Shown here piece after piece: positions 5,848 to 14,433 of a stretch of 64,000 nucleotides of DNA. The notes beneath the pieces were generated by a model. It made no database searches. It saw only the letters and a program-made list of their open reading frames with translations, and was not told the DNA's origin. Source of the DNA: Bacteroidota bacterium. Lineage in GTDB: Bacteria; Bacteroidota; Bacteroidia; Bacteroidales; GCA-2748055. Position 1 is the first letter of the stretch. Each line of letters starts with the position of its first letter. The DNA lies in contig JBNJEV010000011.1 of the NCBI GenBank assembly GCA_051746185.1, positions 9,995-73,994 on the forward strand, given 5' to 3'. Made by a program: the position numbers and the translations under genes.

Positions 5848-5855
5848 TATCTTTG
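5848..5855 (+). promoter_or_regulatory. Candidate Bacteroidota -7 promoter box (TAnnTTTG)
   Basis: tatctttg matches TAnnTTTG and ends 36 nt upstream of the ATG at 5891, in a divergent intergenic region. This is a motif match only. Confidence 0.3.
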
Positions 5856-5890: not shown

Positions 5891-7366
5891 ATGAACTACC
5901 GGACTGTTACAAGGCGCGAATTTGTAAAACTATCTGCTGCGGCTGCAGCGGGAGTCACCCTTTTGCCCGGATGCGGGTTCCGGCTGGATCAGCTGCCGGC
6001 TCCCATGAAAAGGGAATTTGGAAAGACCGGCTTCCGGGTGACCACCCTGGGGCTCGGGGGACAGGCCTCCCTGCAGTGGACCCCGGAAGACGTGGACCCC
6101 GTACCCATCATCCTGAAGGCATTCAACATGGGGATCAACTACTTCGATACCTCCAATGTCTATGACGGCAGCCAGATGAATTACGGCAAGGCATTCAGGC
6201 AGCTGAACCTGATCCCCGGCCACCCGGAATATGACGAAAAACTGCGCGAGTCCATCTGGCTGACCACCAAGACCGGCATCAGATGGGCAAAAGGAGGATA
6301 CCCTGAAATGGAAGGGGTAAGGAATTTCACCCAGGGGGATCACGGAGAAGGTGCGGTGGCCGACCTGAAGCGTTCCCTGTCCCAGATGTTCGGCGACGGG
6401 AAGGGAAATTATCCGGAGGGAGCCTATGTGAATATGATCCTGATGCACGCCCTGGACAATTTTGAGGAGGTGGAAGTGCTGTACCGGGGTCTCGATACAC
6501 CCCCGGATCCTGACGGGAATTTCGGGGCACTGGTGGCAATCAGGGATTTCAGGGACGGGACCAACATCACGGGTTTGAATCCGAAGCATGAACAGCTGGT
6601 GAGGCATATCGGCTTTTCGGGACATCTGAATTCACCGGCCATGATCGAAATGATCCAGCGGGACCGTTACGGGCTCCTGGACGGAATGCTGGTGGCCATC
6701 AATCCCAATGACAAGCTCTACCTGAACCACCAGTACAACGTGATCCCTGTGGCAGAGGCCGGGGGACTGGGGATCATTGCCATGAAGGTATTTGCCGACG
6801 GGGCCATGTACACCAAGGAGGCACGCTGGTCGGGTAATCCCGAAGATGTGGTCCGGACCGTGGGCAGTGAGGAGCTACCCAGCAACCCCCTGGTGGAATA
6901 TGCCCTGACCACCCCGGGTATCCATACGGCCATCATCGGGATCGGACAGATCTCCGATGATCACCTGAATTGCCAGCTGGTTCAGAACTACTACGCAGCC
7001 CAGATCGCCCCGGACGGAATGGAGCACCGGAAAAGGCTGGAGATGGAGCAGAAGACGGCACAGGTAAAAGACGGAAAGACCAATTATTTCCAGCGTCCCA
7101 AAGTTGGGCTCACTCCTCCGAACAATCCCAGGATCCTTGAGGAAGGAGAAATAAAACTGGCCTGGGACACTGCCTATGCCGGAGATTTTCCCGTTTCCCA
7201 TTACGAGGTATTCAGGGACGGGGAACAGGTGGGCAGCATTCCTCATACGCCCCAGACCACAAAGGAGCCATTCATTTTCCGGGACGAAACCGGGGGGCGT
7301 TCCTACCGGGTGGTCTCGGTGGATACAGAGGATAACCGGGCAGAAAGCGAACCCCTGGTGGTTTGA
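5891..7366 (+). CDS. Aldo/keto reductase with Tat/lipoprotein-type signal and a C-terminal ~90-aa beta-rich (Fn3-like) extension
   Basis: 491-aa ORF. The N-terminus is MNYRTVTRREFVKLSAAAAAGVTLLPGC (twin-Arg plus a lipobox-like Cys). The AKR core includes FGKTGFRVTTLGLGGQASLQW…INYFDTSNVYDGSQ. The tail is …KLAWDTAYAGDFPVSHYEVFRDGEQVGSI…YRVVSVDTEDNRAESEPLVV. Confidence 0.8.
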   Translation: MNYRTVTRREFVKLSAAAAAGVTLLPGCGFRLDQLPAPMKREFGKTGFRVTTLGLGGQASLQWTPEDVDPVPIILKAFNMGINYFDTSNVYDGSQMNYGKAFRQLNLIPGHPEYDEKLRESIWLTTKTGIRWAKGGYPEMEGVRNFTQGDHGEGAVADLKRSLSQMFGDGKGNYPEGAYVNMILMHALDNFEEVEVLYRGLDTPPDPDGNFGALVAIRDFRDGTNITGLNPKHEQLVRHIGFSGHLNSPAMIEMIQRDRYGLLDGMLVAINPNDKLYLNHQYNVIPVAEAGGLGIIAMKVFADGAMYTKEARWSGNPEDVVRTVGSEELPSNPLVEYALTTPGIHTAIIGIGQISDDHLNCQLVQNYYAAQIAPDGMEHRKRLEMEQKTAQVKDGKTNYFQRPKVGLTPPNNPRILEEGEIKLAWDTAYAGDFPVSHYEVFRDGEQVGSIPHTPQTTKEPFIFRDETGGRSYRVVSVDTEDNRAESEPLVV

Positions 7367-7376
7367 GGGGTTCAGC

Positions 7377-7440
7377 CTGGTTTGCGCAGTTCGGCTGGTT
7401 TGCGCAGTTCGGCTGGTTTGCGCAGTTCGGCCTGGTCTGG
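7377..7440. repeat. Perfect 18-bp tandem repeat x3 (ctggtttgcgcagttcgg) plus a partial fourth unit
   Basis: Read directly: units at 7377-7394, 7395-7412 and 7413-7430, then cctggtctgg. It lies between convergent stops (TGA at 7364-7366, TCA at 7445-7447). Confidence 0.95.
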
Positions 7441-7444
7441 GGGT

Positions 7445-8866
7445 TCAGCTGCCTTTGAACCCTTTGCGTTCCATGACCCCCCAGGTATTCTTTCTGAAGA
7501 GCTTGTCCAGGTTCCCCTTGATGATCATCAGAAGTACAACGGGATGGTAAAATATCGGCTCCAGGAAAGCTGTGCCGATGAGTTTCAGAACATCCCTCCT
7601 TTTTTCATATTTATGGAAAGTGATCTCTTCGAAAAGAACGGACCAGATGGATAGGGAAACAGCGAAGAAATAGACAAATCCCAGAAGAAGCAGGAAAAAG
7701 GGCCAGTTCAGCCTGCCTGTAACTGCCAGGAATATGAACCAGAGGATCCCCAGAAATTCTATAATGGGGGCCAGGTATTCGAACACCAGCCAGTAAGGAT
7801 ACCCCAGCAAACCCAGCTTGCCGTATTTTTTATTGAAAAACAGCTTCCTGTGGGAGATCAGGGTTTCCAGGGTGCCGCGGGTCCAGCGGCTTCGCTGCCG
7901 GGCCAGCATTTTGATCGAGGAGGGGACCTCGGTCCAGCAGAGCGGATCGGGAATATACACCACATCATACTTCTGTCCCTGCTCTGCCATATAGCGCCGG
8001 ATGCGTACAACCAGCTCCATGTCCTCTCCGACGGTATCGGTCCGGTACCCTCCGGCCCGGATCACGATCTCACGGTCGAACATTCCCAGTGCACCCGAGA
8101 TCAGCAGCAATCCGTCCAGTTCGCTCCAGGCCATACGTCCCATCAGAAAGGCCCTGGTGTATTCCATCACCTGTGCGCGGGGCAGGAATTTCCGGGGAAG
8201 ATGGATCTTCCGGATATGTCCGCCGGAAATCTCGCATGAATTGGCGATCCGGATCACCCCTCCGGCACCGATCACCTTTTTTTCCTTGGCTTCCAGGAAT
8301 GGCTTCACCAGTTTTAGCAGGGCATCCGGTTCCATGATCGAATCCGCATCGATGCTCACCACCAAATCGTTCCTGGAAACATTCAGTCCGGCATTGAGCG
8401 AATCGGCCTTACCCCCGTTGATCTTATCGATCACCGTCAGTTTTTTGAAGGACCTGTTTTGCGATTTGTACACCCCCCGGATCCGTTTGCAGGGAATGCG
8501 GTAATCGAAATAGTAATTCACCTTTTCCAGTTCATAGGCCCGGATGATCTTCTCCAGGGAATCGTCTGTGCTCCCGTCGTTGACCACGATCACCTCGTAA
8601 TTGTTGTAATACAGAGAAAGCAACGTACGGATATTGTCCACAATCGTCTGGCTTTCATTGAAAGCGGGTGCGATCACCGACAGGGAAGGGGCCAGCGGAG
8701 AGGAGACAATGGAATTGTAATCCACGTAGCTGTTCTTTCTCAGGTATTTGCGAAGCGAAACCGCCGAAAATATGGTAAGCATCAGATAGGTACTGAAGAT
8801 CAATGCGGTGATGATGAAGATCGCATGCAGGAAAAAAAACCTCAGTATGTCGTACATCTGTTCCAT
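7445..8866 (-). CDS. Family-2 glycosyltransferase, processive membrane-embedded polysaccharide synthase type (PgaC/IcaA/NodC/BcsA-like)
   Basis: 473 aa. It has N-terminal TM helices and a GT-A core with VVNDGSTDDS (D96), SIDADS (D173xD175), GEDMEL (E281-D282) and QRSRW (324-328). About four C-terminal TM helices follow (YPYWLVFEYLAPIIEFLGILWFIFLAV…). Confidence 0.85.
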   Translation of the reverse strand: MEQMYDILRFFFLHAIFIITALIFSTYLMLTIFSAVSLRKYLRKNSYVDYNSIVSSPLAPSLSVIAPAFNESQTIVDNIRTLLSLYYNNYEVIVVNDGSTDDSLEKIIRAYELEKVNYYFDYRIPCKRIRGVYKSQNRSFKKLTVIDKINGGKADSLNAGLNVSRNDLVVSIDADSIMEPDALLKLVKPFLEAKEKKVIGAGGVIRIANSCEISGGHIRKIHLPRKFLPRAQVMEYTRAFLMGRMAWSELDGLLLISGALGMFDREIVIRAGGYRTDTVGEDMELVVRIRRYMAEQGQKYDVVYIPDPLCWTEVPSSIKMLARQRSRWTRGTLETLISHRKLFFNKKYGKLGLLGYPYWLVFEYLAPIIEFLGILWFIFLAVTGRLNWPFFLLLLGFVYFFAVSLSIWSVLFEEITFHKYEKRRDVLKLIGTAFLEPIFYHPVVLLMIIKGNLDKLFRKNTWGVMERKGFKGS

Positions 8867-8869
8867 ATC

Positions 8870-10171
8870 TCAATAGATCCGGCCATCCAGTACATGCCGG
8901 ATGATGATCTGGTAATTTCTGTATTCAGATTTTGATTTCATGAGCCTGACCAGCATGGATATCCCCGGCTCATCCGTATTCTCCATCGCTTTTGTGGCCT
9001 GGATCTGCAGCTGAACGTCCTCTTCCCTGTCCAGTACCGATTTTAAAAATTTCAGGTGCCGGGCATCCGGGATCCTGGCGAAAGTCCGCAGGATCTCCAG
9101 TTTATTGTGGTAAGTCTCCCCCTCATAGATCCTTTTCAGCACCGGTAACGATCCCTTCAGGCCGATCTCTCCGCAAACCCTGATGGCTGTGTGCCGGACC
9201 TCCGCATCCTCGTGTTGAAGCAACCGGATCACATCCCTGCCCACCCCATGCTGTTTGAACCATGCAGCCATCTCCAGGGCAAATTTTACCACCGACAGAT
9301 TCTCCGAATCAAACCACTGCCTGAAAGGGGGAACTTTCAGGTTATGCTGTATGAGCATTTCATGCAGGGTGATCTGTTCCCATTTTGCCAGGGGTCTTTC
9401 CATGTAATGCAGGAAGTGATAAGGGTTTTCGTCCGATAATCTCACCAGTGCGATCTGAGCTTCCATTCTCAGGATCTCATTGCCGGAATTCACACATTCT
9501 ATGATCCTTTGATTCGCCTCCCTGATATTCATGTATGCCAGTTCCCTGAAACCTTTCACATTCTCGTGCCATTTCCGGCTGTAGGCTTTTTTGAGGGAAT
9601 CTTCCCTGAGGCCCAGGATCAGGTAGAGTTCCCTGATCCGGTCCTTGATGTCACCTTTCAGGTTAATGCTCAAATCGATCATCTGGTCGATCAGGATCTG
9701 ACGGTCGAACCTGCCCGAGGCGACCTTCTTAAGATCCCTGACACACCGTTCCCGGCTGCTTTCATCAAACAGGTAATCCATAAGCATTTGCTGGTACTCC
9801 TGCCTGAGATACTCGGTCCGCTCCTCTTCTCTCCGGAGCTTTTTCCTGTGGAGCAGAATAATGATCAGCAGGGTGATCAGGGTCACAATGGAATAAAGGA
9901 TCACCACATAGAGGACCGTAATGAACAGGGGTGATTTATTAAACCGCTTCACGATCCACCTGGCATAACTTTTCAGTGCGCCTTCCTTTTCCGGTTCCGT
10001 TTCAAGGGAAGCTTCTGTTTCTGTCAGATTTTCATCATTTTTGGTATAATCTGTCCGTTCAATGGTACCGGCACGCCCGGCTGTATTTTGCTGCTGAACC
10101 AGCGCCACGGAACTGCAAAGGGGCAACCCGTAACACATTACGATCAGGATATATTTGACGCTTCGCTTCAC
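8870..10171 (-). CDS. Membrane-anchored HEAT-repeat protein (2 predicted TM segments, cytoplasmic HEAT/PBS-lyase-like repeats)
   Basis: 433 aa. It has a hydrophobic N-terminus, an acidic linker and a TM segment (SPLFITVLYVVILYSIVTLITLLIIILLH). HEAT-like repeats follow, e.g. VIRLLQHEDAEVRHTAIRVCGEIGLKGSLPVLKRIY. It overlaps the upstream gene by 4 nt and is 3 nt from the GT2 start. Confidence 0.7.
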   Translation of the reverse strand: MKRSVKYILIVMCYGLPLCSSVALVQQQNTAGRAGTIERTDYTKNDENLTETEASLETEPEKEGALKSYARWIVKRFNKSPLFITVLYVVILYSIVTLITLLIIILLHRKKLRREEERTEYLRQEYQQMLMDYLFDESSRERCVRDLKKVASGRFDRQILIDQMIDLSINLKGDIKDRIRELYLILGLREDSLKKAYSRKWHENVKGFRELAYMNIREANQRIIECVNSGNEILRMEAQIALVRLSDENPYHFLHYMERPLAKWEQITLHEMLIQHNLKVPPFRQWFDSENLSVVKFALEMAAWFKQHGVGRDVIRLLQHEDAEVRHTAIRVCGEIGLKGSLPVLKRIYEGETYHNKLEILRTFARIPDARHLKFLKSVLDREEDVQLQIQATKAMENTDEPGISMLVRLMKSKSEYRNYQIIIRHVLDGRIY

Positions 10172-11403
10172 TTTCCCAGACTGATATAGATCCCCGTCCT
10201 GAAGTGGATGCGGTGCCGGTGTTCCCTGTCCGCATATTCCTCATATGCATAACCGCTCGACGCGTCCAGGCGCAGGTTATACCGGAATTGCCATGAAATC
10301 CCCAGTCTGAATGAATAAGCCCCAAGCCGGTCAAGATCGGAAGCCACCAGGATGGGTTCATCAGGCGCTGTCCCGAATCCCAGGGTCGCCGACACATAAT
10401 TGTACCTGTCAGCAAAATACCGGCGGGCGCTCAGGTAATAGGATCCCGACACCCCGTAATCCTTAAAGAACAGGTAATTTCTCAGAGAGAACCAGTAGTT
10501 ACCGGCATACTTCTCCCCGGAAAATGTCAGAAAGGTGAAATGGCGGTCCCAGTAGAAATAACGCATACCGGCTGACAGTGAAAATCCCCCGGGCAGGACC
10601 TGCCAGAGTTCCAGGGCGGCCCTGTGCAGCGGCAGGTACATGGTACGCTGACCGGGAGAGATGCCGTATCCGGCCAGCAGATAATTTTTCTCTCCCAGGT
10701 GGAGATAGGAATCCAGGTTCAACTGTATGTCAGAGTTGGGACGGTCAAGTCCGCCGTGAATCCCTGTATTGATATAAGGAATAAGCACCCCTGCCCTCAG
10801 CGGTAGATTCCCTCCCACGGTCAGCATGTGCCAGTTACGGACATAGGGTTTTTGGAAATGATCATATGCATAGAAAACATATATCTCGGGTACTTCCTGA
10901 GAGACAGCCAGTTTGTACCTGGCCAGCCGGTACCTCCCCCTGATGGGGGGATCATCCGGAAAGATTTGAAGGGCCTGCCGGGCGTACACGGCCAGGGTTT
11001 CCCAGTCATTTTCCCAGTAGGCAAGATCCACGAGTACCCTGTGCGCTTCCAGCAATGTGGAATCCACTGCCAGGACATCCTCAACACGTGCATATGCTGA
11101 ATCGTATTCCCCCTGCCATCCGTGAACCCTGGCCAGGTAAAGGGAAACATCCCCGTAACCGGGATTTTCTTCAAGCAGCCGGTACCCGATGTCCTCCGCC
11201 TTTTCATATTGCCCTTCGGCAGCGTGGACCCGCATCAGTGCAAATCCCTCCCCGGGATTCTGATAGGTTGCCGGGGACTCCTGTCCCGTGGCGGAAAAGA
11301 AAATGCAGACCAGCAGGATCAGCAAACACCCCCTTCTATTGATCATCCTTTTCATATATTTTTCCAAGGGACCGGACCAGCTCAAGCAAAGCATCCGGAT
11401 CAA
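10168..11403 (-). CDS. TPR-repeat + YaiO-family outer-membrane beta-barrel protein (likely start at 11355 or 11346)
   Basis: The signal peptide MKRMINRRGCLLILLVCIFFSATGQ begins at the internal Met. The N-terminal TPR-like part includes AEGQYEKAEDIGYRLLEENPGYGDVSLYLARVHGWQGEYDSAY. The C-terminal part has alternating aromatic beta-strand patterns and ends …HRIHFRTGIYISLGK, as in YaiO-type barrels. Confidence 0.7.
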   Translation of the reverse strand: MIRMLCLSWSGPLEKYMKRMINRRGCLLILLVCIFFSATGQESPATYQNPGEGFALMRVHAAEGQYEKAEDIGYRLLEENPGYGDVSLYLARVHGWQGEYDSAYARVEDVLAVDSTLLEAHRVLVDLAYWENDWETLAVYARQALQIFPDDPPIRGRYRLARYKLAVSQEVPEIYVFYAYDHFQKPYVRNWHMLTVGGNLPLRAGVLIPYINTGIHGGLDRPNSDIQLNLDSYLHLGEKNYLLAGYGISPGQRTMYLPLHRAALELWQVLPGGFSLSAGMRYFYWDRHFTFLTFSGEKYAGNYWFSLRNYLFFKDYGVSGSYYLSARRYFADRYNYVSATLGFGTAPDEPILVASDLDRLGAYSFRLGISWQFRYNLRLDASSGYAYEEYADREHRHRIHFRTGIYISLGK

Positions 11404-11728
11404 AAGGTTTGGTAAGATATCCGCTTGCCCCCAGTTCCATCGCGTGGACTCTTGTCTCCTCCAGATTGATGATGGAAATAATGATCACAGGGATTTTTGT
11501 TTCCATCTCTTTATTCACATACCGAACCACCTCCAGTCCTTTTGCATAGGGCATGTTGATATCCGTGATCACCAGATCGGTTTTCTTTTCGTTCAACATG
11601 CGGATCGCCTGCTCCCCGTCTTCTGCCTTCAGGACCTCATATCCCTCTTTGACCAGTGTGAACTCAATGGTCCTCAGGGTCATGGGATTATCCTCGCAGA
11701 CGAGTATTTTCATGGGATCTTTGCTCAT
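11336..11728 (-). CDS. Stand-alone response-regulator receiver (CheY-like) protein
   Basis: 130 aa. KILVCEDNPMT carries the acidic pair, DLVITDINMP the phospho-acceptor Asp, and GYLTKPF the conserved Lys. There is no output domain. Confidence 0.85.
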   Translation of the reverse strand: MSKDPMKILVCEDNPMTLRTIEFTLVKEGYEVLKAEDGEQAIRMLNEKKTDLVITDINMPYAKGLEVVRYVNKEMETKIPVIIISIINLEETRVHAMELGASGYLTKPFDPDALLELVRSLGKIYEKDDQ

Positions 11729-11752
11729 TGTTCTGCAAAGTTAATCAAATCC

Positions 11753-14368
11753 TCATTGGATAATGACCTTATGTGATTCCATGGAACGATCTGTAAAGAT
11801 CCGGATGAGGTAGGTCCCCGGCTGAACATCCCCGAGCGGGATCACCGTTTCAGTCCGTTGAAGCTCTGCAGAGGCAATCTCCCTCCCCACCATGTCCGTG
11901 ATCACGACCATTGCCGTGTCAAATGGCCGGGAAGACCGGATATGGAGAAGATCCTTTGCAGGATTGGGGAAGATCTCAAAACGATCCACGGGATCCTCCC
12001 CGGCAACTGCATTATCTGCCAGGGGAAATTCGACCCTGATGGTTACGGGTACCAGGGAGGAAAATTCATACCCGTCATCCAGGTAATACATGAAAAAGTC
12101 CTCTCCCCGGAATCCCGGATCGGGATAATAGTTGAAACTGCCATCGGGATGCAGGTACAGTGATCCGCCGTGTGTGGCCCTTCCCGGTGCAAGAATTGCC
12201 ATGACCGGGTTCCCGTCAATATCAAAATCATTGGCCAGCAATCCGTCCTGTGCTTCCGGATCCAGATAACCGCCGGGGCGGACAATGAAGGTATCGGGAT
12301 AACCGATGGGGGGCGAATTGAACAAGGGCAATTTATGTTTCAGGAAATGAAAAGATTGTTTCTTGCGTTCGATGGGCGGATCAGCCAGGATCTTTTCGAA
12401 ATCCCAGAAATCCCACGTGTGCCTCTCCGTCTGATACAATTCATCCCCCAGGGAAAGTGTGAGAGCAATGCCTTCGGACAGGGTATCCTGCTTCAATATG
12501 ACGATATCATCTCCCTGTTGTTCCGAGAGATAATGCATCGCCCGTCTGACATTGGGAGCCGTAAAGTTGATCAGGGTCCAGGGAATCCGGATCTCCAGGC
12601 TATCCTTGAATTTGGTGACCGCATTGAGGAACTGGTAAGGATCCTCGTCCCGGGAGATCCGCAGTGCCCCGATATTTTGTGCGTAGTTGTAAAAATAGTT
12701 GGTTTTCCATCTGACCGGATTCCAGATCCCTTCATCGCTTCTTACGGATACCACCGTATCCAGCCGAACCGGCTGTTTGACCCCGAATACATCATAGGAG
12801 GGGATCACATGGAGACTGGCCAGGCTGCCTTCCAGGGGGATGCCCAGTGCGAATTCCGCCCTGAGGGTGTCGGTATCCCCGCCCAGGGAGGCACCGCCGG
12901 GAAAAATGGATTCACCCAGATTTTTTTCGTAGGTGTCCAGCGCTATCCACAGGGTATCCCCGGTATGCTTCTCCGTATCCATATAGAGACGGATCCTGAA
13001 GAATGTGTAGTCGGAAACCATCCTGATGCCGGAAATAGCCTTCCCCGGATAGGAACCCGATTCAATATACGGGAAAGGAGGAGGGGCATATGAAAGTATG
13101 CCGAAATTCTGCTCAGGTGCGGTGATGTTGTGCCATAAATGCCGGTATTGTTTGTCCGAAAAAGGATTGGTGATCCAGGTCTGCTTGAACCATTCATCGA
13201 TGAGTGAAAACTGAATCCCCCCGGCACAGTCCGCTTCCCGGATATTGTCCAGCATGCGGATGGAATACCTTCCCTGCTGTTCTTCCGTGAGCCCCCCGTG
13301 ATGCATCCCCGAGGAAGTCAGGTGGGCACTTCCCCAGCTGGAAGGCACACCGAATTCAGCGATCAGCAGGGGAATTCCTTCATAATGATCCTTCAGATCC
13401 TTCAGGTATCCCAGGTAGCTGTTGGGTCCGATCGAATCGGATTCAAAACCATAATATGGATCCTGTACAATGAAATCAGGGTAATAAGGATAGGCATGGT
13501 AACTGATAAAAAATCCACCCGACGAATCGGCAGCGACCATCCCCGAGAGATCGATCTTTTCATCATCCTCCTGACTGTTCTCCCACATCTGCTCGGTGGG
13601 ATGGGTAAGCGGATCAAGGGTGGGCCAGGAAGAGAATCCGACCGGACGGACGGAACCGAACTGCCGGGCTTCAAAGATCATCAGACTGTCGAGCCGCTGT
13701 GCCATCCAGACCTCTGCCGGATCTGCCTCCCCGGTCAACCGAAAATAGGTCCCGCTGTAGACATCCTCCTCCGGATGGATCTGGTTGGTCAGGGCCACTT
13801 CTGAGGGATAAATCTCCCGGCCGATCAGGTACCCGGCCACCCACCGGGAAATGTCCACGGAAAAAACACCATGGGCCTTCCCCGGACGACTCTGGATGAG
13901 GATGTCTCCGTGGACCGCGCTGACCACGTCCCTGATCTCCCGGCTGAAAGCAGGGGTCAGACCGAACAGGTCCGTGGGCGTTTCCTGCTCTTCGAGCCAT
14001 ATGCCCTGGATCACCAGCAAAGGAGATGCCGGGTGCTCCGAGTTGAACCGGGACAATTCTTCATAGAATCTCGGATAGTGCAGGGTGTAGAGCCTGATGG
14101 TGTTGTAACCCGCTTCCCTGATCAGCTGGAACCATCGCCTGTAATCTTCACGGGAGACAGCAAGCTGTCCCGGCTGTGTTCCGGGCACCGCCACACCCAT
14201 ATTGATCCCTTTGATAAACAGAGGAGTATATTGCCTTCCGTTCCATATGGCAAACCGTTCTTCCTCTATGGTGAACCGGCCCCTGTATGCTGTCTGGCTC
14301 AGACTGTCAACGGGAACAGACAAAAGGATCAGATTAAGCAGAAGCAGGAAGAAGGATCTTATGCACAT
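11753..14368 (-). CDS. Secreted multidomain protein: N-terminal TIM-barrel glycoside-hydrolase-like domain, cadherin/VCBS-like Ig domain, T9SS C-terminal sorting domain
   Basis: 871 aa with signal peptide MCIRSFFLLLLNLILLSVPVDSLSQ. Clan GH-A-like strands are present: FIKGINMGVAVPG…GYNTIRLYT, VAGYLIGREI (E185) and IPLLIAEFGVPSS (E338). GLLANDFDIDGNPV…FFMYYLDDG is a cadherin-like motif. The C-terminus FEIFPNPAKDLLHIRS…GTYLIRIFTDRSMESHKVIIQ is a Por secretion tail. Confidence 0.7.
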   Translation of the reverse strand: MCIRSFFLLLLNLILLSVPVDSLSQTAYRGRFTIEEERFAIWNGRQYTPLFIKGINMGVAVPGTQPGQLAVSREDYRRWFQLIREAGYNTIRLYTLHYPRFYEELSRFNSEHPASPLLVIQGIWLEEQETPTDLFGLTPAFSREIRDVVSAVHGDILIQSRPGKAHGVFSVDISRWVAGYLIGREIYPSEVALTNQIHPEEDVYSGTYFRLTGEADPAEVWMAQRLDSLMIFEARQFGSVRPVGFSSWPTLDPLTHPTEQMWENSQEDDEKIDLSGMVAADSSGGFFISYHAYPYYPDFIVQDPYYGFESDSIGPNSYLGYLKDLKDHYEGIPLLIAEFGVPSSWGSAHLTSSGMHHGGLTEEQQGRYSIRMLDNIREADCAGGIQFSLIDEWFKQTWITNPFSDKQYRHLWHNITAPEQNFGILSYAPPPFPYIESGSYPGKAISGIRMVSDYTFFRIRLYMDTEKHTGDTLWIALDTYEKNLGESIFPGGASLGGDTDTLRAEFALGIPLEGSLASLHVIPSYDVFGVKQPVRLDTVVSVRSDEGIWNPVRWKTNYFYNYAQNIGALRISRDEDPYQFLNAVTKFKDSLEIRIPWTLINFTAPNVRRAMHYLSEQQGDDIVILKQDTLSEGIALTLSLGDELYQTERHTWDFWDFEKILADPPIERKKQSFHFLKHKLPLFNSPPIGYPDTFIVRPGGYLDPEAQDGLLANDFDIDGNPVMAILAPGRATHGGSLYLHPDGSFNYYPDPGFRGEDFFMYYLDDGYEFSSLVPVTIRVEFPLADNAVAGEDPVDRFEIFPNPAKDLLHIRSSRPFDTAMVVITDMVGREIASAELQRTETVIPLGDVQPGTYLIRIFTDRSMESHKVIIQ

Positions 14369-14380
14369 GTCTGTCTTTCA

Positions 14381-14396
14381 TTGGAAGGCCTTCCAA
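14381..14396. promoter_or_regulatory. Perfect 16-bp palindrome ttggaaggccttccaa, immediately upstream of the first gene of the 14368..7445 operon
   Basis: Read directly. It lies 13 nt upstream of the ATG at 14368 and 38 nt downstream of the lysC stop. It has no loop and no U-tract, so it looks more like an operator than a terminator. Confidence 0.3.
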
Positions 14397-14433
14397 AGGT
14401 AAAGAAAGGCAGGTGGGACGGCAACAGAAGTTA

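Follow-up and report, generated by a model that had tools for sequence, protein, structure and literature searches.

A family 2 glycosyltransferase with a HEAT-repeat partner and a response-regulator receiver: a candidate class of polysaccharide synthase loci recurring across bacterial phyla

What is made by a tightly packed five-gene operon that combines a family 2 glycosyltransferase (GT2) with a HEAT-repeat protein and a stand-alone response-regulator receiver, and how might its product be controlled? The predicted operon lies in a 64,000-nucleotide stretch of a Bacteroidota genome (assembly GCA_051746185.1, contig JBNJEV010000011.1), to which we refer here as the window. It consists of five open reading frames (ORFs) on the minus strand, running head to tail from 14368 to 7445 and encoding, in 5' to 3' order, a glycosidase-like protein with a type IX secretion system (T9SS) sorting tail (g1), a receiver (g2), a TPR and YaiO-type outer-membrane protein (g3), a membrane-anchored HEAT-repeat protein (g4) and the GT2 (g5). 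An earlier, sequence-only reading had proposed that these genes form a synthase-dependent exopolysaccharide operon. Its domain calls (receiver, TPR plus YaiO, HEAT, GT2 and T9SS tail) all hold in Pfam and NCBIfam searches. The proposal itself is supported, in that the partners are co-conserved, the GT2 is of the synthase type and no named system matches; it is also widened beyond Bacteroidota, with g1 becoming an accessory. On the gene content, the locus probably encodes a machine for synthase-dependent polysaccharide synthesis and export. Our fuller reading, to which we assign a probability of roughly 0.45, is that HEAT protein, GT2 and receiver form an unrecognised, phylum-spanning class in which a His-Asp phosphorelay gates a processive synthase via the HEAT protein, with interchangeable accessories: a YaiO/TPR porin, a new family of the glycoside hydrolase clan GH-A or a sulfatase-fold enzyme that decorates the polymer.

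The GT2 carries the motifs N96-D97-G98-S99, D173-A-D175, E281-D282 and Q324RSRW328. The last three are where the sequence-only reading had placed them; its first aspartate, put at position 96, is D97. In 30 relatives, 35-90% identical, none of the four motif groups varies. By hydropathy, hydrophobic helices lie on both sides of the catalytic domain, at residues 15-33, 365-383 and 390-408, and the C terminus extends 60 residues past the last of them. A profile of the g5 family aligned with the Chlorella-virus hyaluronan synthase over positions 14-424, and g5 as a single sequence aligned with BcsA over residues 60-412, membrane helices included. The best named families were PgaC_IcaA (TIGR03937; E = 3e-38, 131.8 bits, below the cutoff of 422.3) and, second, the XrtG-associated GT2 (E = 1e-33, 116.4 bits, cutoff 364); none of the five proteins reached any equivalog cutoff in NCBIfam. 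Among E. coli proteins the best match was PgaC (27% identity over 324 residues, E = 4e-30), while YaiP matched over only half the length (29% over 229 residues) and NfrB barely beyond the first motif (E = 0.026 over 56 residues). From the PgaC_IcaA, hyaluronan synthase and BcsA alignments, g5 groups with processive, channel-forming synthases, as had been supposed, and not with lipid-carrier transferases. These features mark g5 as a GT2 of the inner membrane that belongs with the processive, channel-forming enzymes, the channel itself being a predicted one.

Three relatives from the window's own lineage have the g1 family beside the GT2, with identical gene order and flanks. Between the window and these relatives the GT2 is 84-86% identical, compared with 63-67% for the HEAT protein, 57-63% for g1, 55-68% for the receiver, 49-58% for the YaiO protein and 72-75% for the neighboring housekeeping aspartate kinase. 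The synthase gene is thus the most conserved of the locus and, by these identities, is under unusually strong purifying constraint. That it is more conserved than the aspartate kinase argues for an expressed, functional synthase gene.

Does the gene set extend beyond this lineage? We assembled 82 loci anchored on the GT2, called their ORFs, searched them with the five window proteins and grouped their products by all-against-all clustering and family profiles. A scan of one genome per species gave 80 loci with 38-87% identity to g5, in genomes labelled as Bacteroidota, Balneolota, Gemmatimonadota, Myxococcota, Pseudomonadota, Acidobacteriota, Fibrobacterota, Marinimicrobia, Actinomycetota and Bacillota. 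Cultured carriers include Flavobacterium sufflavum, Polaribacter vadi, Mangrovibacterium diazotrophicum, Daejeonella oryzae, Paenibacillus amylolyticus, P. zeisoli and Neobacillus mesonae. At the level of 50% identity clusters, 1382 GT2 clusters scored below E = 1e-30, a count that includes relatives beyond the HEAT-linked family. The partners grouped with the GT2 in the sequence-only reading are co-conserved with it: the HEAT family was found in 78 of the 82 loci, a receiver in 62 and the YaiO family in 52. Three of the four loci lacking HEAT are cut by a contig end. In 68 loci the HEAT gene lies directly upstream of the GT2 on the same strand, and the remaining non-adjacent cases are mostly due to over-long ORF calls in high-GC genomes or to tandem GT2 duplications. 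As the counts stand, the core of receiver, HEAT protein and GT2 recurs in about ten phyla and is not specific to Bacteroidota. By its distribution, described below, the T9SS glycosidase is a lineage-variable accessory and not part of this core. Tandem duplication is seen in three loci of Chitinophagaceae type (L025, L026 and L029), where two GT2 paralogues follow a single HEAT gene; L029 is labelled Beijerinckiaceae yet has a Chitinophaga-like layout and may be mis-binned.

Gene fusions, counted among the 150 best GT2 representative clusters, link the same partners. HEAT is fused to the GT2 in 36 clusters, TPR or YaiO-barrel sequence follows the GT2 in ten, and at least three are GT2-Sulfatase fusions. 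One cluster (P0509) is a HEAT-GT2-REC fusion (REC, receiver), and one (P0378) joins the GT2 through a transmembrane segment to a glycoside hydrolase (GH) of the g1 family (E = 3e-178). Every partner encoded in the window is therefore covalently joined to this GT2 somewhere. Taken with the gene neighborhoods, these fusions indicate that a g4-type HEAT protein is an obligate partner of this GT2 family, encoded beside the GT2 or often fused to its N terminus.

The fusions also bear on where the HEAT protein would sit. The window protein g4 matches HEAT_2 (Pfam, E = 1e-13) and has hydrophobic segments at residues 7-25 and 89-107, the second followed by a basic stretch; the HEAT solenoid should therefore be cytoplasmic. 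HEAT-GT2 fusions have one N-terminal helix, basic residues, the HEAT region, a two-helix hairpin and the GT domain, a layout which places the solenoid in the cytoplasm beside the catalytic domain. The sequence-only reading had described g4 as a HEAT protein with two transmembrane helices. Both hydrophobic segments are there, but the first is uncertain as a membrane helix, since the fusions have a single one at the N terminus, and segment 7-25 may be a lineage-specific leader. In an uncultured Bacteroides-like genome (L007, 7653-9998) the HEAT partner is 781 amino acids (aa) long and carries a SPOR (peptidoglycan-binding) domain near its N terminus.

The receiver g2 consists of a Response_reg domain only (Pfam, E = 1.9e-29), with no DNA-binding domain. 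Its canonical receiver positions are all filled: E12-D13, the phospho-acceptor D56, S85 and K107. Among the 62 receivers near related GT2 genes, D13 is kept in 52, D56 in 56, S or T at position 85 in 57 and K107 in 61. These 62 were counted as receiver-containing proteins within 5 kb of the GT2 and on its strand; in 33 loci the receiver lies directly upstream of the HEAT gene. The receivers of Bacillota, Actinomycetota, Myxococcota and Gemmatimonadota share a protein with an Hpt domain, a second receiver or a GGDEF domain, and several loci of Flavobacteriia, Sphingobacteriia and Cytophagia have a hybrid histidine kinase gene next to them. In three loci from Bacillota and Actinomycetota (L047, L068 and L082) the receiver by the HEAT-GT2 pair is part of an Hpt-GGDEF-REC or Hpt-REC-GGDEF protein. 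Such neighbors suggest that phosphorelay and cyclic di-GMP (c-di-GMP) signaling may converge on this synthase in some lineages.

How might these parts work together? In the mechanism that we propose, g5 would polymerize a UDP-sugar into a beta-linked chain and push the chain across the inner membrane during growth. The HEAT protein would act from the cytoplasmic side as a scaffold or regulatory co-subunit, in place of PgaD, a PilZ domain or BcsE. The receiver would be phosphorylated by a histidine kinase, possibly a hybrid one, encoded elsewhere, and in its phosphorylated form would turn the HEAT-GT2 complex on or off by binding to it directly; a phosphorelay would then replace c-di-GMP as the control. 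The chain would be taken through periplasm and outer membrane by g3, as is done by PgaA, BcsC, PelB and NfrA. Carried to the cell surface by the T9SS, g1 would cleave, trim, release or transglycosylate the emerging polymer, a role that we liken to those of BcsZ, PslG or the hydrolase domain of PgaB, but outside the outer membrane. GT2 enzymes invert, and enzymes of clan GH-A act on beta-linkages. For contact-dependent control there is a precedent in Myxococcus, where the single-domain response regulator EpsW is proposed to activate the initiating transferase of a Wzx/Wzy pathway, EpsZ, by contact and not through transcription (PMC12802240). That system differs from the window locus in being Wzx/Wzy-dependent, in having an initiating phosphoglycosyl transferase rather than a processive GT2 as the target, and in having no HEAT protein. 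That the receiver gates the synthase directly, through the HEAT protein, is a tentative proposal, which we would place somewhat short of even odds.

Several points weigh against the mechanism and the class as we have drawn them. No histidine kinase was detectable in the window with the kinases of related loci as queries. The evidence for direct gating by the receiver is gene adjacency and a single fusion cluster, and the single-cluster fusions, with the receiver and with the GH, need caution because metagenomic gene calls can merge neighboring genes. In the alignment across the HEAT family no column is conserved above about 72%, and no ligand or contact residues emerge, so that no binding site can be proposed. 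No YaiO-type barrel is known as a polysaccharide exporter, and this barrel type, of about 230 residues, is smaller than the barrels of PgaA or BcsC. Most Bacteroidota loci lack the g1 family, and in L002 a homologue is encoded with no GT2 nearby. A scan for sigma-70-type promoters and terminators stayed at chance level, a type of scan that is unsuited to Bacteroidota. Finally, all members of the family are known from their genes alone.

The missing kinase and the single GT2-REC fusion cluster also favor the alternative that survives best, namely, that the receiver does not act on the enzyme and is a phosphate sink or a branch of another pathway, synthase output being set only by transcription. 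Single-domain receivers often act as phosphate sinks. Such a role would nevertheless have to be reconciled with the presence of a receiver domain beside HEAT-GT2 across about ten phyla, regardless of its own domain partners, and with the lack of a DNA-binding domain in g2. We consider this alternative unlikely.

For the export step, the candidate is g3, which has a signal peptide, TPR repeats at about residues 54-150 (TPR_19/TPR_14) and a YaiO-type beta-barrel at about residues 174-401. The barrel scored well above the cutoffs of both YaiO models (PF19413, 113.1 bits versus 23.9, residues 174-349; TIGR04390, 74.9 bits versus 32, residues 174-401). The YaiO family was found in 35 of 43 Bacteroidota loci, and each of its 52 loci is from a phylum with an outer membrane; it was found in none of the 14 Bacillota and Actinomycetota loci. 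In five clusters of 711-745 aa (P0394, P0395, P0401, P0406 and P0507) the GT2 is joined straight to a YaiO region, with no TPR. Such a fusion, which would put an inner-membrane synthase on an outer-membrane barrel, is topologically puzzling, and either these are merged gene calls or YaiO is not always an outer-membrane barrel.

Could the locus instead be a diverged Pga/Ica-type system, in which g5 makes poly-beta-1,6-N-acetylglucosamine (PNAG) and g3 and g1 are the equivalents of PgaA and of the PgaB hydrolase? PgaC_IcaA and PgaC are, as given above, the best named family and the best E. coli match of g5; JGI annotators label relatives "PgaC" or "PNAG synthase-like"; and the layout of a TPR porin and a hydrolase is common to both. 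The window locus further resembles E. coli PgaABCD in its GT2 with D, DxD, ED and QxxRW, its inner-membrane partner, its predicted TPR-barrel exporter and its proposed post-translational control. However, the partner in the window is a HEAT solenoid of about 400 aa and not PgaD, the barrel is of the YaiO type and not the PgaA type, the predicted hydrolase is clan GH-A-like, with a tail for T9SS export, versus the periplasmic GH153 of PgaB, and a receiver is found where c-di-GMP acts in Pga. In none of the five proteins did we find a deacetylase domain, CE4 or other, and PgaB and PgaD (IcaD) had no counterpart among them. The score of g5 lies far below the PgaC/IcaA cutoff, and g3 reached only 18.9 bits versus 366.65 for the PgaA equivalog (TIGR03939), in the TPR region only; it had no significant blastp match to E. 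coli PgaA and an E value of 1.7 against NfrA. The HEAT-linked family is, moreover, at least 38% identical to g5 across phyla, well above the level of PgaC. A diverged PNAG system is thus quite improbable, while the polymer itself could still be GlcNAc-based.

More generally, comparisons by equivalog cutoffs, E. coli proteins, annotations and literature revealed no characterized system that matches the locus, in agreement with what the sequence-only reading had claimed. Neither a name for this gene combination nor a study of it was found in the full-text literature searched, outside which most subscription journals lie, and the source annotations of relatives read "hypothetical protein," "HEAT repeat domain-containing" or "glycosyltransferase family 2." The E. 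coli yaiO-yaiX-yaiP-yaiS cluster also encodes a YaiO-family barrel near a GT2, but YaiP is a shorter GT2, E. coli YaiO lacks TPRs, and the cluster, which encodes no HEAT protein, receiver or glycosidase, includes an acyltransferase pseudogene and a deacetylase; being cryptic in function, it explains nothing about the window locus. Two other operons, B. subtilis ydaJKLMN and Listeria pss, were considered as equivalents and dropped, since their partners differ (a GGDEF receptor, a BcsB-like protein and a GH8). Papers on the PilZ-bearing Romboutsia RiGT2 and on the lipocone superfamily proved irrelevant.

Two further systems combine similar parts. The E. coli NfrB-NfrA-YbcH system pairs a c-di-GMP-activated GT2 with the outer-membrane protein NfrA (PMC8669469). 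It resembles the window locus in having a GT2 synthase, a TPR-containing outer-membrane protein and the kind of locally controlled activation that we propose for g5. However, NfrB has a c-di-GMP-binding MshEN domain, an extension absent from g5, and NfrAB lacks a HEAT partner and a receiver. In type II Bcs systems, BcsA/B work with BcsE, BcsF and BcsG, including cytoplasmic regulatory subunits, and BcsE has a degenerate receiver domain (PMC11470070, PMC8892547), whereas receivers of the window family keep a complete phospho-acceptor site. For the CelA/BcsA model TIGR03030, g5 scored 35.2 bits versus 699.1, and Pfam searches found no PilZ, BcsB or BcsC at the window locus. The polymer decoration by BcsG, a sulfatase-fold protein, has a parallel in the Sulfatase genes and fusions of other members of the HEAT-linked family, to which we return below.

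What, then, is g1? Its signal peptide is followed by a TIM barrel resembling those of clan GH-A, then by a conserved middle region rich in beta structure and by a Big_9/cadherin-like domain. At the extreme C terminus lies a sorting domain that passes the T9SS type A cutoffs, so that secretion is predicted. No Pfam or NCBIfam model matched residues 1-680, and neither the single sequence nor an 11-sequence profile gave a useful match in the PDB; the fold therefore had to come from modeling. A full-length AlphaFold2 model from a 32-sequence alignment had a predicted local distance difference test score of 80 and a predicted template modeling score (pTM) of 0.75. It gave low TM-scores because of its many domains, and a domain-only model was needed. 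Residues 25-430 modeled alone reached a pTM of 0.82, with the best Foldseek matches among a GH157 endo-beta-1,3-glucanase, GH2 uronidases, the GH72 enzyme Gel4 and GH5 (E = 1e-10 to 1e-6, TM-score about 0.5, at most 17% identity). The TIM barrel claimed in the sequence-only reading, for which sequence searches gave no support, is thus borne out by the model and assigned to clan GH-A.

In the model, Glu185 directly follows barrel strand 4 (residues 177-183) and Glu338 lies in strand 7 (residues 334-339), the positions of the clan GH-A acid/base and nucleophile. The residue preceding Glu185 is Arg or another residue in the g1 family versus the usual Asn of clan GH-A. Conservation in Bacteroidota homologues, and in Bacillota homologues that are only 29-30% identical, covers both glutamates as well as R92, H291/Y293 and D391-E392-W393. 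The clan GH-A fold and the conserved glutamates at the catalytic positions make it very probable that the modeled barrel is catalytically active, as a retaining beta-glycosidase or transglycosylase. Its family is an undescribed one, as judged by comparison with Pfam, NCBIfam and the PDB and by the low identity to its structural matches. The Foldseek matches single out no GH family, and no substrate can therefore be read from them. The middle region shares invariant P596/W597 (in an IRIPW motif), W652 and K670 with Bacillota homologues and is possibly a carbohydrate-binding module. UniRef and NCBI label some Paenibacillus and Clostridium members of the g1 family (clusters of L063, L076 and L043) as "Family 2 glycosyl transferase"; this label conflicts with the clan GH-A fold and looks carried over from the neighboring gene.

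Does g1 belong to the machine at all? It might be an independent T9SS-secreted glycosidase that forages environmental glycans, leaving a system of g2 to g5 only. The family is missing in 42 of the 43 Bacteroidota loci of the genome sample, is encoded convergently to the other four genes in Mangrovibacterium and has the lone homologue mentioned above, and a promoter-like motif lies between g1 and g2. However, it is linked to this GT2 in three phyla: beyond the window's lineage it occurs in one Gemmatimonadota locus and in seven of nine Bacillota loci, whose g1 homologues have a membrane anchor instead of the T9SS tail and whose coding regions are adjacent or overlap (by 4 nt between GT2 and GH in L047). 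It is also fused to the GT2 in P0378, and the order g1-g2-g3-g4-g5 is kept in the three relatives despite the low identity of their g1 proteins. Moreover, no SusC/SusD-type utilization genes are adjacent in the window or in these relatives. We give a g1 outside the machine as little credence as a diverged PNAG system.

A different accessory appears elsewhere in the family. At least 14 loci lacking g1 (L009, L010, L011, L012, L017, L018, L020, L023, L024, L037, L041, L066, L072 and L080) encode a "Sulfatase"-domain membrane protein, often one that has TPRs or is fused to the GT2; most belong to other Bacteroidota classes or to Balneolota, and one is labelled proteobacterial. The window locus has no such gene. 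The "Sulfatase" fold is that of phosphoglycerol and phosphoethanolamine transferases such as BcsG, OpgB and LtaS, which decorate periplasmic glucans, lipoteichoic acid and cellulose, and its presence suggests that the polymer is decorated with a phospho-alcohol in those lineages. These proteins, and the monoderm members that lack any export porin, are what could be said for the least probable alternative, that GT2-HEAT makes a glycan retained in the envelope (a periplasmic glucan, a glycolipid or a wall-linked polymer) with the receiver tuning envelope remodeling, but the TPR and outer-membrane barrel gene is co-conserved specifically in outer-membrane phyla and is sometimes fused to the GT2, the accessory glycosidase is predicted to be extracellular, through T9SS at the window locus and through a membrane anchor in Bacillota, and the same sulfatase-type domain also decorates secreted cellulose in the case of BcsG.

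The arrangement of the operon is summarized in Table 1. ORF calling found all five same-strand ORFs at their earlier coordinates, on the minus strand. The tight packing described for them holds for the spacers of 24 nt between g1 and g2 and of 3 nt between g4 and g5 and for the 4-nt overlap of g3 and g4 (GTGA); between g2 and g3, where a 4-nt overlap had been given, it is 20 or 11 nt, depending on the choice of ATG for g3. Either ATG yields a normal signal peptide. The aspartate kinase gene lies upstream of g1 on the same strand, at a distance of 65 nt. Matches to TAnnTTTG, the -7 promoter motif of Bacteroidota, occupy the only two real spacers of the operon. The one before g1, TACCTTTG, is a candidate for the operon promoter, and the one before g2, TAACTTTG, is a possible internal promoter for g2 to g5, which fits g1 being a separable accessory because g1 is convergent in Mangrovibacterium. 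The window contains 28 matches versus 19 ± 4 expected, many of them 20-70 nt upstream of ORF starts (e.g., at 5848, 20555 and 28212), as Bacteroidota promoters would be.

Table 1. Coordinates of the operon, its parts and adjacent features in the window
Feature	Position	Strand	Size or residues	Description or basis
g1	11753-14368	-	871 aa	secreted multidomain protein
g1 (beta/alpha)8 barrel	13094-14239	-	residues ~44-425	catalytic-type; AlphaFold2 and Foldseek
g1 beta-rich middle	12320-13093	-	residues ~426-683	model secondary structure, alignment
g1 Big_9/cadherin-like Ig domain	12038-12319	-	residues 684-777	PF17963, E = 2.9e-9
g1 T9SS type A sorting domain	11756-11974	-	residues 799-871	PF18962, 37.3 bits versus 27; TIGR04183, 35.5 bits versus 23
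g2	11336-11728	-	130 aa	stand-alone receiver (REC)
g3	10168-11355	-	395 aa	TPR and YaiO-type protein; ORF open from TTG 11403, likely start ATG 11355 or 11346
g4	8870-10171	-	433 aa	membrane-anchored HEAT-repeat protein; GTG start
g5	7445-8866	-	473 aa	GT2 processive synthase (predicted)
TAnnTTTG match TACCTTTG	14394-14401	-		26 nt before the g1 ATG, in the 65-nt spacer; motif match only
TAnnTTTG match TAACTTTG	11736-11743	-		within the 24-nt g1-g2 spacer; motif match only
Convergent gene	5891-7366	+	491 aa	downstream side of g5
18-bp repeat	7377-7436		3.3 copies	between g5 and the convergent gene

On its downstream side the operon meets a conserved convergent neighbor, the gene of a 491-aa protein with a twin-arginine-like leader, MNYRTVTRREFVKLSAAAAAGVTLLPGC. 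Its syntenic counterpart in the three relatives, 66-74% identical, is an aldo/keto reductase (PF00248). The 78-nt spacer between this gene and g5 contains 3.3 copies, at 97% identity, of the 18-bp unit CTGGTTTGCGCAGTTCGG; a terminator-like hairpin was looked for in this spacer and none was found.

Few synthase-dependent systems are understood, namely, those for cellulose, PNAG, alginate, Pel and some single-synthase cases, and nearly all of them are switched by c-di-GMP. If our reading is true, the HEAT-GT2-receiver loci would represent a new way of controlling biofilm or capsule polymers, through an obligate HEAT type of co-subunit, itself new, and a phosphorelay input. A further glycoside hydrolase family would be added, YaiO-type barrels would gain their first function, and the poorly known matrix biology of Bacteroidota and soil Bacillota would become open to experiment.

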